NCBI GenBank assembly: GCA_037310415.1
Contig: CP147780.1
Location: 416,001 to 480,000 of the forward strand
Length of the DNA: 64,000 bases
DNA from: Candidatus Atabeyarchaeum deiterrae
Lineage (GTDB): Archaea > Asgardarchaeota > Atabeyarchaeia > Atabeyarchaeales > Atabeyarchaeaceae
Direction: 5' to 3'
Part shown: piece by piece, positions 4,430-57,474 of the stretch
Layout of the letters: each line of letters opens with the position of its first letter
Numbering within the stretch: the first letter of the stretch is position 1
Made by a program: the position numbers and the translations under genes
Notes under the pieces: generated by a model
What the model was told of the DNA's origin: nothing
Seen by the model: the letters and a program-made list of their open reading frames with translations, nothing else
Database searches by the model: none

Positions 4430-5452
4430 ATGTCGGGACCATCTAAGCCTTTGATTTGCCTTGGTATTGAGGGTACTGCTCATACGATTGGGGTTGGAAT
4501 CGTAGAAGGCGATGGAAAGGTTCTAGCCAACAAGCGGAGCGAGTATGTTCCGAAGAATGGAGGAATACACCCTCGGGAGGCAGCTGAACATCATGCAGAT
4601 GCTGTACCTAAGCTGATAGCAGAAGCACTCAGCGTTGCGAAGCTGAGCGTAAACAAAGTTGACGTGGTATCGTTTTCAATGGGTCCAGGACTAGGACCTT
4701 GTCTTCGAGTTGTTGCAGTAGCCGCAAGAACGCTTGCATGCCTACTAGGAAAACCCCTTGTTGGTGTCAACCACTGTCTAGCACACATTGAAGTGGGTAA
4801 GTTAGTTACGGGGGCGAGGAACCCATTGGCGTTATATGTTAGCGGTGGCAACACAATGGTCGCAGCTTTTGAATCAGGGCGCTACAGGGTTTTTGGGGAG
4901 ACACTTGATATTGCTGCTGGGAACATGTTAGATGTTTTTGCAAGAGAAGCTGGGTTGGCACATCCTGGGGGGCCCAAGATCGAGCAACTTGCTGCAAGGG
5001 GGAGGAACTTCGTAAGTTTGCCTTACACCGTCAAAGGAATGGATCTCTCTTTCTCAGGTTTGTTGACTGCAGCTACTGGTATCTTGAATGGGGGCAAGCG
5101 ACGCCTAGAAGATATATGTTACAGTCTTCAGGAAGTGGCATTTTCCATGCTTTCAGAGGTCACAGAGAGGGCTTTGGCGCATACTGAGAGAAAGGAGGTA
5201 TTGTTGACTGGTGGTGTCGCCGCGAATAGAAGGTTGCAAGAAATGATCTCGATGATCTCAAAGGAGCATTCAGCGCAATTTTACGCAGTTCCATTTGAGT
5301 ATGCCGGCGACAATGGGGCTATGATAGCTTGGACAGGATTGAAATCTTGCAAGGCTGGGATAACTGTCAAAGTGGAAGAGAGTTTCGTTGAGCCAAAGTG
5401 GCGTCTTGACGATATTGAGATTGCTTGGGGGGTTGTTGATGGAGACGCATGA
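4430..5452 (+). CDS. kae1: KEOPS tRNA t6A transferase Kae1
   Basis: LGIEGTAHT, GIHPREAAEHH, GVNHCLAHIE, YVSGGNT, DNGAMIA. Confidence 0.95.
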   Translation: MSGPSKPLICLGIEGTAHTIGVGIVEGDGKVLANKRSEYVPKNGGIHPREAAEHHADAVPKLIAEALSVAKLSVNKVDVVSFSMGPGLGPCLRVVAVAARTLACLLGKPLVGVNHCLAHIEVGKLVTGARNPLALYVSGGNTMVAAFESGRYRVFGETLDIAAGNMLDVFAREAGLAHPGGPKIEQLAARGRNFVSLPYTVKGMDLSFSGLLTAATGILNGGKRRLEDICYSLQEVAFSMLSEVTERALAHTERKEVLLTGGVAANRRLQEMISMISKEHSAQFYAVPFEYAGDNGAMIAWTGLKSCKAGITVKVEESFVEPKWRLDDIEIAWGVVDGDA

Positions 5453-44060: not shown

Positions 44061-45682
<1,622 letters not shown>

Positions 45683-55330: not shown

Positions 55331-55463
55331 ACTTGAACGATCTTTCATTGTAGACGAGGATTAAAGATTTTGTCACTTTTCTTATAAACTCTTTGACCTG
55401 CAACTGCGTAACGATGTCTGACCAAGGATCATCGCCAACGAAAAATAGGAGAGGCTAACCAAG

Positions 55464-55766
55464 TCATTTGAAAAGTCCTTGTAGAACTATTGCAGATGTG
55501 AATAGGGCCCGGTTGCCTCCTACATAATAGGCTATTCTCAGTGCTTCGACAATCTCTTCTTTGGTGGCCCCGACTTTCATGGCTCTCTGACCCAGTGCGG
55601 TGGCTCCTTGTGTTGCCCCATGCTCCGCATCTAATGCCATGGCTATTAGTAGCTTGACCCTTTGGGGTAGTACTCCTTCTGACAAAGCTGTACTTTGTAG
55701 ATGATCGAAGCATTCCATCACTTTCGGATCGAATTTCCTGTAGATATCCATAGGATTACCAAACAT
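55464..55766 (-). CDS. Carboxymuconolactone decarboxylase/AhpD-like protein
   Basis: L..RVKLLIAMALDA, GATKEEIVEAL; no CxxC. Confidence 0.85.
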   Translation of the reverse strand: MFGNPMDIYRKFDPKVMECFDHLQSTALSEGVLPQRVKLLIAMALDAEHGATQGATALGQRAMKVGATKEEIVEALRIAYYVGGNRALFTSAIVLQGLFK

Positions 55767-55923
55767 GATATCACCAATGGCACAGTATAGAGCCGCCTAA
55801 ATAGGATTTGGCTTGTCATGGAGCGCCTCTGGGAAATGGATAGTTCGCTCTCCTATTTGGTAGCTTACTTAGAAGAATGAGTCGGCAAGCTCATGCCGAA
55901 TAGTCTAAGAATGTTTGACCAAG

Positions 55924-56268
55924 TGGTGCGGGGGGTGGGGTTCGAACCCACGCAGGCCTACGCCGATAGGTTTCCTAGAAGATTGCCTAGAGGTCTTGCG
56001 CCTTCTGGAGTCCCCCATAGTTTGGAAGAGTCTTTTCTGCCAGCCCCATTTCCAGTGGTATCGACCCTTACCATATCTCTCCCTCTGAGTTCGAGCAAGT
56101 GCTCACCAACGGCTGAGCCATGAGTGCCATCGTCCAATGTCACCGACGTCAAGGATTGCTTGACCAACTAGCGCATACGCTACCATTTTGTCTGAATAAG
56201 CAAGCTCTTTCATTCTGGGCAAAGTTCTCCTAAGCCTACCTCCTTTGACCAGGCTCGGACACCCCCGC
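55924..56268 (-). tRNA. tRNA-Leu(TAG) with a 257-nt intron at 37/38 (56228-55972)
   Basis: 5' half GCGGGGGTGTCCGAGCCTGGTCAAAGGAGGTAGGCTTAGG; 3' half ACCTATCGGCGTAGGCCTGCGTGGGTTCGAACCCCACCCCCCGCACCA; BHB CTTA/TAGG. Confidence 0.92.
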
Positions 56269-56521
56269 AACAAGGCGGCTTCCGATTTGTCTGCTTAGTT
56301 CTATGAGTAATTTCCCTTTTACCCTTTTTGTCTTCCCTAAGTTATCATGGTGTAGCTATTGAGAACCATCTTGCCAAAGAGGCATCTTCCGTTCAGAACA
56401 GGTCTCCGTCCTGGATAGTCCTTCATTGCATCATTTGCGGAGATCTCTATTCTTATGCGAAACCTTTTTAGTTTTCTTCAATAGTAAGAGTTCAAATGAC
56501 AGCCACAAGAATACTGTCAAA

Positions 56522-57025
56522 ATGGGAGAGTGGCATTATTTGCCAGGCAAAGATACTAAAGTAGATTTGAGTTTGAAGGGAAAAGAGTACGCACCCATAA
56601 AGTTCAAGGTTGAGAAGGCGCACATTGCTGCTTTTGCCCAAGCGGTCGACGATCCAAACAAGCTCTATTTCGATGAGAAGTACGCGGCAAAAACAAAGTA
56701 CAAGGGAATAATCGCCCCCCCAACTTATTCCGTGTGTTTCGGTGGTCCGCTGGAGGTTGGTAAACAGCCACCTACGCCACTGGTCCAAGTTGCTTTAGAT
56801 GCTAAGATAAATGTGGGGATCATGGTTCATGGAGAACAGCAATTTGAGTATCTCACACCAGTACGCCCAGGAGACGACATAACAACGATTGCAAGAATCG
56901 CGAATGTTGAGCACAAGCCGCGTAAAGATGGAAGCAAGCGTGGCATAGTAACGGTTGAAGTTACTTCCAAGAACCAGAAAGGTGAGAAAGTCACTGTTTC
57001 TCATGTCGTCCTAATAGAAAGATAG
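56522..57025 (+). CDS. MaoC-like hotdog-fold dehydratase, N-terminal-type subunit
   Basis: FAQAVDDPN, IAPPT, HGEQQFEY..PVRPGD. Confidence 0.85.
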   Translation: MGEWHYLPGKDTKVDLSLKGKEYAPIKFKVEKAHIAAFAQAVDDPNKLYFDEKYAAKTKYKGIIAPPTYSVCFGGPLEVGKQPPTPLVQVALDAKINVGIMVHGEQQFEYLTPVRPGDDITTIARIANVEHKPRKDGSKRGIVTVEVTSKNQKGEKVTVSHVVLIER

Positions 57026-57048
57026 CGCAAGGAGAAGTGAGAAAGCGA

Positions 57049-57474
57049 ATGAGCAGCCAAGTTGGTTTTGATAAGATCAAAGTTGGAGACATTATTCCTC
57101 CTCTGACGAAGGGTCCTTTAACAAGGGAATGGATTAAGAAATATGCAGACGCATCAGGCGATCACAATCCAATCCACGTCGATGACAAATACGCTACAGC
57201 GTTCGGTCTTCCAGGCGTCATAGCACATGGAATGCTAAACATGGGATTTGTTGCCCAGCACGTGGCGAACTGGGCTGGTCTGGACGGCAACCTAAAGATG
57301 ATAAAGGTTCGGTTCGGAGCGATAGTTAAACCTGGAGACACGGTGACCTGTAAGGGTAAGATAAAGGACAAGAAGACCGAGGGTGGCAAGAAGACGGTTT
57401 TCTGTGAGCTTTGGGCAGAGAACCAGAAGGGTGAACAAGTGATTACAGGAGAAGCTGAAGTGATTTTCTCGTAG
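57049..57474 (+). CDS. MaoC-like (R)-enoyl-CoA hydratase subunit
   Basis: YADASGDHNPIHVD, IAHGML. Confidence 0.9.
   Translation: MSSQVGFDKIKVGDIIPPLTKGPLTREWIKKYADASGDHNPIHVDDKYATAFGLPGVIAHGMLNMGFVAQHVANWAGLDGNLKMIKVRFGAIVKPGDTVTCKGKIKDKKTEGGKKTVFCELWAENQKGEQVITGEAEVIFS

Follow-up and report, generated by a model that had tools for sequence, protein, structure and literature searches.

A probable relic of a protein-coding bulge-helix-bulge intron in the tRNA-Leu(UAG) gene of Candidatus Atabeyarchaeum deiterrae

Why should one tRNA gene of an Asgard archaeon carry an intron of 257 nt? The gene in question encodes tRNA-Leu(UAG) and lies in a 64,000-nt stretch of the Candidatus Atabeyarchaeum deiterrae genome (GenBank assembly GCA_037310415.1, contig CP147780.1, forward-strand positions 416,001 to 480,000), hereafter the window, in whose coordinates positions are given unless stated otherwise. 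A first-pass annotation of the sequence had placed the intron at a canonical bulge-helix-bulge (BHB) motif at tRNA position 37/38, which the motif scan, ARAGORN and a published tRNAscan-SE table all confirm, and had singled it out as a length outlier, which is borne out in that the next-longest intron in the published table for this genome measures 62 nt. As possible explanations it had put forward a stable circular non-coding RNA, nested introns or the relic of a mobile intron. Comparison with a single metagenomic relative leads us to consider that the intron is probably a still-spliceable relic of a protein-coding BHB intron, that is, of one that carried an open reading frame (ORF) in its loop.

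The evidence that carries this reading comes from a 69-codon frame of the intron, which was searched by phmmer against 1.8 billion protein representatives. Its sole non-self match (E = 7.6e-4, 53% identity over 45 residues) is a protein, P0013, encoded at positions 2–403 of L098, a JGI metagenome contig of 922 bp, in a frame of at least 133 codons that is open past the 5′ end of the contig. The P0013 stop codon, TAA, falls within a strand UAAG that would pair with C32–A35 of the tRNA, and it is followed directly by GAA, the splice site and ACCUAUCGG (also given as GAA, splice site and ACCUAUCGGCG), in other words by a tRNA-Leu 3′ exon that is the same as that of the window at 45 of 45 positions. 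Since the ORF ends just ahead of an identical 3′ exon, the relative appears to have an intron at this very splice site, at least 403 nt long and taken up by an ORF in the sense orientation. When P0013 was searched back in six frames against the genome of Ca. A. deiterrae, the intron alone was recovered (window 55994–56131, E = 1e-7). At the DNA level, intron nucleotides 109–256 (56120–55973) align with L098 259–405, colinearly over 148 nt and with one 1-nt indel; after removal of the last 22 nt, which are constrained by the splice motif, the alignment still scores 54 as against 23.2 ± 3.5 for 1000 shuffles (maximum 38), a distance of about 9 standard deviations. Mismatches between the window and L098 number 13, 15 and 27 at codon positions 1, 2 and 3, respectively, and this third-position excess points to past selection at the protein level during much of the divergence. 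What stands of the mobile-intron relic proposed in the first-pass annotation is therefore the relic of a protein-coding, possibly mobile intron, given the homology of its 3′ 148 nt to the last part of the ORF that L098 has at the same site.

The same alignment bears on the alternative that the extra sequence is unrelated filler, either a captured fragment of genomic or mobile-element DNA or the outcome of slippage growth of a 60-nt intron, in which case the L098 match would be an independent capture or due to chance. The match to L098 stops where the window intron does, at the splice site next to an identical exon, and it is colinear and well above chance, which argues against such an origin, as does the lack of a donor in the organism's own genome, where neither a donor nor a paralogue of the intron was found by blastn, blastn-short or six-frame tblastn. 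(One tblastn match at 1,479,7xx with E 0.004 was set aside as chance; it has 29% identity, X at stop codons and 64% nucleotide identity.) Filler would be in line with the approximately 95 nt located 5′ of the relic block, for which no match to L098 1–258 above shuffles was obtained, with the fact that no general arrival route for Asgard tRNA introns is given in a 2026 preprint (bioRxiv 10.64898/2026.10.13.758758), and with a 22-nt exact match, found in a 21-mer screen of IMG/VR, between window 56144–56165 (minus strand) and positions 4634–4655 of viral contig IMGVR_UViG_3300007038_000001 (L097). However, the viral match stops at 22 nt; both sequences are in the frame VGQAILD, on the viral side within a 413-aa ORF, and for want of any extension the match was taken as chance. 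On balance we hold a filler origin to be very unlikely.

How much of the protein gene is left can be read from the alignment. P0013 has a weak winged-helix match at residues 57–105 (Pfam HTH_5, E = 0.0025; NCBIfam ArsR-type, E = 0.009; PHROG, E = 0.0024), and the relic block of the window starts at residue 83, in the middle of this domain, so that the window copy is a truncated form. In addition, the window copy has gained 1 nt at a point five codons ahead of the ancestral stop, and the frame, shifted by this insertion, passes the splice site into exon 2. An intact protein gene is absent from the window intron, which holds only about 49 codons of the 3′ end, together with the frameshift. Judged by these comparisons, the window intron is a truncated and frameshifted derivative, a working intron with the remains of a pseudogene in it. 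On this frame, a 64-aa 'hypothetical protein', P0012, is entered in the genome record; it is probably a spurious gene call on the ORF relic, and its annotation across the intron–exon boundary should be flagged as a likely artefact.

Could the relic still encode a small protein, either from the 64–69-aa frame or from a 36-aa ATG ORF, with either the pre-tRNA or the excised intron as its message? The frame has stayed open for 65 codons over the homologous block, a gene is on record in the form of P0012, and a translation across the circular junction, as proposed in the first-pass annotation, extends the frame to 91 codons on a circle. Yet only the second half of the winged-helix domain has been kept, the ancestral stop has been lost by the frameshift so that the frame runs into exon 2, and there is no ATG at the head of the frame, so that the start would have to be a TTG or internal. 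As for the 36-codon ATG ORF, it is present as annotated at first pass (56213–56103, minus strand) and begins directly after the basal stem; no relatives of it were found by Pfam, among longer proteins or in the ESM Atlas, and Pfam returned no match for any of four intron ORFs. Strain differences within the intron (plus strand: 56067 C>T, 56146 A>T and 56191 T>C) are non-synonymous in their frames in three out of three cases, and both of those within the 36-codon ORF change an amino acid. A small protein product thus seems to us the least credible of the explanations considered, and a highly improbable one.

Returning to the relic of a protein-coding intron, one can picture its history as follows. 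The ancestor or donor would have been a longer intron at 37/38, its loop occupied by an ORF on the sense strand, with a winged-helix DNA-binding domain at its end and a stop codon that fell within the central helix of the splice motif. Deletion would have removed the greater part of the ORF in this lineage, at least as much of it as lies upstream of the relative's residue 83, and the 1-nt insertion would have shifted the frame just ahead of the old stop. Left over would be some 148 nt of defunct coding sequence, a further 95 nt or so of unassigned 5′ sequence, and an intact basal stem and splice motif. The motif being intact, an EndA-family endonuclease should still cut at both bulges, and the genome encodes two genes of this family (PF01974) as well as one RtcB gene (PF01139). 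We infer that the EndA-family enzymes cleave both bulges and that RtcB joins the exons, the 257-nt intron being circularised as a by-product. The lost protein, finally, may have been a homing endonuclease, probably of the LAGLIDADG plus winged-helix type, which would have made the intron mobile.

The identity of the lost protein deserves separate consideration. In the ESM Atlas, the nearest named clusters to P0013 include archaeal LAGLIDADG_3 plus HTH_5 proteins of 314–381 aa (scores 0.76–0.87, below the trust level of 0.9), and the neighbours of P0013 residues 1–62 are all LAGLIDADG clusters, also below that level. When P0013 was compared with a profile of LAGLIDADG_3 domains from Asgard archaea (21 sequences), its residues 9–38 fell on the domain's final strand and helix, with an E value of only 0.09–0.2 against this single target. 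Comparison of P0013 with free-standing Asgard LAGLIDADG proteins, with or without a winged helix, gave nothing significant by phmmer, blastp or hhalign. Two Asgard loci, L139 (G031:C36) and L140 (G021:C48), do contain free-standing ORFs of 367–368 aa with the LAGLIDADG motif LRGLFDGDGS and a C-terminal winged-helix-like tail, so that the combination of LAGLIDADG with a C-terminal winged helix exists in Asgard genomes; P0013 has no significant similarity to either ORF. At L139 there is also a tRNA T-arm-like match about 160 nt from the ORF, on the other strand. Taken together, the odds for a LAGLIDADG-type homing endonuclease as the lost protein seem to us to be about even.

A separate LAGLIDADG-bearing locus came to light in the sister genus. 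In Atabeyarchaeia-1, the region 451000–452700 (L146, genome G001) contains a two-motif LAGLIDADG frame of about 230 codons, with one in-frame TAG and ending at a second TAG, that has a copy of a segment of 33–35 nt on either side (48–80 and 1023–1057 of the region). The segment corresponds to the 3′ end of the 16S rRNA gene in the genome studied here (window about 45579–45613), and the locus has the appearance of an insertion, carrying an endonuclease gene, at the 3′ end of the 16S gene; the window genome does not have it. According to Rfam, the window encodes an archaeal 16S rRNA, a 23S rRNA and an RNase P RNA.

Several observations weigh against the view that the intron is the relic of a protein-coding, possibly homing-type intron. 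The ORF-bearing form is known from one 922-bp metagenome contig that is cut inside the ORF; the start codon, any catalytic domain and the 5′ splice site would lie beyond the contig's end. P0013 is a singleton cluster, and no relatives of it were found in 400 Asgard genomes (which yielded only generic winged-helix proteins), in IMG/VR or among longer proteins. Its N-terminal 62 residues have no HMM match, no nuclease match was obtained with Pfam, NCBIfam or PHROG, and its AlphaFold model has a pLDDT of 40 and is unusable. The gene flanking the tRNA on L098 is not syntenic with the window: it is GNAT-like, and its best match, at 68%, is in an Asgard genome of another family, with no tRNA beside that match (an exact look-up of the neighbouring 42-aa ORF of L098 gave no match). 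The openness of the relic frame, mentioned above, must be counted here as well, and so must the comparison of two strains, in which 3 changes were seen in the 257-nt intron versus 7 substitutions and 1 indel in approximately 207 nt of flanking spacers. The lower number of changes in the intron is compatible with mild constraint, the numbers being far from significance.

A further alternative is that this lineage acquired a non-coding RNA with a function, be it as a guide or as a stable circle, and that the length of the intron has been kept for that function. After excision, archaeal introns are closed into circles by RtcB, and in the case of tRNA-Trp the intron serves as a C/D guide (PMC4090602). 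The present intron is identical or 99% identical across several samples, it has somewhat fewer strain differences than the flanking spacers, and there are a few local hairpins in its fold, among which the TAGCG/CGCTA and GTCAAG/CTTGAC hairpins noted at first pass are indeed both part of the minimum-free-energy structure. Nevertheless, the folding energy of the intron is −72.2 kcal/mol versus −74.5 ± 4.9 in dinucleotide shuffles (z = +0.47), 136 of the 200 shuffles folding as well or better, and the whole pre-tRNA has a z of −0.33; as folding is no better than in shuffles, the visible hairpins are what chance would be expected to give. An Rfam search of 55700–56500, at gathering thresholds and with E values up to 10, returned only a chance lncRNA match (E 0.55), with no family for the intron region and no group I intron match. 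There is no C box (RUGAUGA, with up to one mismatch allowed) and no D box (CUGA) in the intron, in agreement with the earlier statement that no clear C/D boxes could be seen. No copy of the intron is present in its own genome or in 400 Asgard genomes, in which only matches of 23–34 nt with E > 0.001 were found, and a phage collection gave no match. With no orthologues found outside the species for a covariation analysis, and with stability not above background, a conserved structure was not apparent. The nearest relatives have an intron of about 60 nt or a different one, and more than half of the intron is explained as dead coding sequence. Compared with the euryarchaeal tRNA-Trp guide intron, that of the window is likewise long, is located at 37/38 and would leave as a circle, but it is devoid of C, D, C′ and D′ boxes, has no Rfam match and is not conserved beyond the species. 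We therefore consider a functional RNA unlikely, and nothing points to a separate role for the released intron RNA or for any peptide; that the relic is functionless is what we infer. Nested introns find no support either, since internal BHB candidates, with flanking helices of 2 bp, occur at chance level in the motif scan. The intron has no internal repeats other than a tandem near-repeat of 12 nt, described below, in the region of its 3′ splice site.

The history of the site in relatives was followed through the gene order CMD – tRNA-Leu – MaoC – MaoC – FEN1, which is conserved among them; the sister genome SRVP18_Atabeyarchaeia-1 was reached through a neighbouring protein. In one state, represented by Atabeyarchaeia-1 (L065), LC30 (L064) and contigs L091, L092 and L094, tRNA-Leu(UAG) has an intron of 21–22 nt at 30/31 and none at 37/38. 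In a second state, represented by contigs L086/L087, L033 and L034, there is an intron of 59–62 nt at 37/38; L086/L087, whose neighbouring MaoC protein is 86% identical to that of the window, is the closest relative found. The 5′ exon has the same sequence in the window and in L086, L033 and L034. Together with the 257 nt of the window and the at least 403 nt, ORF included, of L098, this shows the site at 37/38 to vary among relatives, and the lineages with a 30/31 intron have none there. The 59–62 nt introns resemble the window intron at their ends (5′ AGAnCUUUGCC, 3′ GCAAnUUUCnnnGAA), and comparison with L034 and L086 shows the 5′ strand of the basal stem to be similar to the 5′ end of the approximately 60-nt introns; their apical parts match neither the window intron nor L098 above shuffles, except for the 5′ 14 nt shared with L034. 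Because relatives carry an intron of about 60 nt or a different one, the 257-nt form is, in the genomes and contigs compared, confined to this species, and the different introns of sister lineages indicate that introns turn over at one syntenic gene. In Atabeyarchaeia-1 the T-arm/acceptor region of the tRNA-Leu(UAG) gene also contains an insert, about 31 nt in length. In a peat metatranscriptome (run X19), an RNA-library contig was found with tRNA-Leu exons like those of the window and a 29-nt insert of the 30/31 type, which is either a pre-tRNA, not yet spliced, from a different Atabeyarchaeia-like organism or DNA carried over into the library.

The features of the locus are collected in Table 1.

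Table 1. Coordinates of the tRNA-Leu(UAG) gene, its splice motif and the parts of its intron in the window; a slash marks the splice site within a bulge
Feature	Position	Strand	Basis or remark
tRNA-Leu(UAG) gene, encoded CCA included, 345 nt with intron	55924..56268	minus	sequence reading, ARAGORN, published tRNAscan-SE table
5′ exon, positions 1–37, anticodon UAG at 56232–56230	56229..56268	minus	sequence reading
3′ exon, positions 38–76 plus CCA	55924..55971	minus	45/45 identity to L098 3′ exon
BHB intron, 257 nt, at 37/38	55972..56228	minus	motif scan, ARAGORN, published table, identical independent assembly
Central 4-bp helix, exon strand, C32–A35, CUUA	56231..56234	minus	motif scan
5′ bulge, G36 G37 / A	56230–56228	minus	motif scan; directly after exon strand CUUA
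Central 4-bp helix, intron strand, UAGG	55974..55977	minus	motif scan
3′ bulge, A A / A38	55973–55971	minus	motif scan; directly after intron strand UAGG
Basal stem, 5′ strand GAACUUUGCCCAGA	56214..56227	minus	fold
Basal stem, 3′ strand UCUAGGCAAUCUUC	55978..55991	minus	fold; near-repeat with 3′ splice region (12 nt, tandem)
Putative relic, 3′ end of intron-encoded protein gene, about 49 codons, second half of winged-helix domain	55973..56131	minus	phmmer, six-frame search, DNA alignment, codon-position mismatches
5′ segment, no detectable relative, holds start of 36-codon ATG ORF	56132..56213	minus	no match above shuffles
P0012, 64-aa 'hypothetical protein' on genome record	55958..56152	minus	relic frame open across 3′ splice site into exon 2

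The splice motif of the 257-nt intron is a fully canonical hBHBh′ motif. Its outer helix is the anticodon stem (5–6 bp), all four pairs of the central helix CUUA/UAGG are formed, and the inner helix GAA/UUC (3 bp) runs on into the 14-nt basal stem TTGCC.AGA / TCT.GGCAA, the bulges being GG/A and AA/A. Once the intron is taken out, the exons read as a normal tRNA-Leu(UAG) that has CCA and a long variable arm. With introns allowed, ARAGORN finds the gene with a 257-nt intron at the same boundaries, shifting the anticodon and calling the tRNA Ser. The published tRNAscan-SE table lists, as Atabeyarchaeota_2 tRNA 36, a Leu TAG gene at 472268–471924 with an intron at 472228–471972 (66.4 bits), and the genome coordinates of the window gene match this entry exactly. 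The existence of the intron is thus already on record, without comment, and its nature is not discussed there. The 12-nt tandem near-repeat, AGGTTTCCTAGA / AGATTGCCTAGA, lies across the 3′ splice site (window 55968–55991, plus strand) and provides an alternative 3′ bulge 12 nt upstream, where the motif scan finds a weaker motif that would define an intron of 245 nt. The 3′ CCA of the tRNA is encoded in the gene (window 55924–55926, minus strand); the L098 gene has no CCA and reads CTT after the discriminator A.

That the intron is real and unusually long can be judged from independent data. A 98-kb Logan contig from another run is 100% identical over 55400–57100, and contigs from further wetland and soil runs carry the intron, one of them with 3 substitutions. 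An assembly chimera, which the first-pass annotation had named as an outcome that would dispose of the intron, is excluded by its presence in contigs of independent runs. In a scan of the genome for acceptor and T-arm pairs, this tRNA gene is the longest, at 341 nt as against at most 211 nt; two longer 'introns' reported by ARAGORN (893 and 491 nt) are false, both being within coding sequence. In the published table, the next-longest single intron read is one of 62 nt in this genome and one of 81 nt in a Freyarchaeia genome, and a review from 2014 gives a range of 11–129 nt for archaeal tRNA introns (PMC4090602). Compared with ordinary short archaeal introns at 37/38 (PMC11291895; bioRxiv 10.64898/2026.10.13.758758), the window intron has the same position, motif and splicing enzymes. 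It differs from them in being three to four times as long as any other read in the published table and twice the 129-nt maximum (PMC4090602), and in holding recognisable dead coding sequence.

The closest parallel is found in archaeal rRNA genes, in which ORF-bearing BHB introns with LAGLIDADG genes occur alongside 'remnant' and short hairpin introns at the same sites (PMC4496867; PMC6125680). The intron of the window and that of L098 resemble such rRNA introns (I-DmoI; Thermoproteales 16S, PMC4496867) in their reliance on the tRNA splicing endonuclease and a BHB motif and in having a protein gene in the loop in the sense orientation. Likewise, full, remnant and short hairpin forms are seen at one site, which fits a cycle of homing invasion, decay and loss. 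However, the host gene is here a tRNA gene and the window holds the remnant only; as to L098, its protein, a possible endonuclease, is seen in part and has a C-terminal winged helix. In the literature searched there was no description of a comparable ORF in an archaeal tRNA intron, nor of a pattern of ORF-bearing, relic and stub forms for archaeal tRNA genes. In Bacteria, tRNA genes may contain group I introns with homing-endonuclease genes, as in the case of I-Ssp6803I in cyanobacterial tRNA-fMet. These share with the window an anticodon-loop intron with a protein gene that can decay, but they are self-splicing ribozymes, whereas the splice sites of the window intron lie in a BHB motif and no Rfam group I match was found.

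What the locus may mean extends beyond one gene. The relic reading would account for the longest intron in the published Atabeyarchaeia-2 table without calling for a new RNA. In Atabeyarchaeia and Freyarchaeia, 92–95% of the tRNA genes have at least one intron (PMC11291895). A census of Asgard introns from 2026 concluded that introns were gained repeatedly and that 'how they arrive remains open', a homing-type protein-coding intron not being among the arrival routes tested (bioRxiv 10.64898/2026.10.13.758758). A speculative extension, to which we give limited credence, is that protein-coding introns of the homing type invade Asgard tRNA genes and that, of the short tRNA introns so abundant in Asgard archaea, many arose through their decay. 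If this were true, the site at 37/38 would display three states of the cycle, namely the ORF-bearing intron of L098, the half-decayed one of the window and the stub of about 60 nt in L086, L033 and L034; the 3′ exon common to L098 and the window, with a T-loop variant absent from the other relatives seen, would be explained by co-conversion during homing; and the question raised by the census, of how intron DNA arrives, would have an answer. With an ORF-bearing form, a half-eroded form and short stubs at one and the same site, the locus offers a testable lead on one possible route by which such tRNA introns originate.

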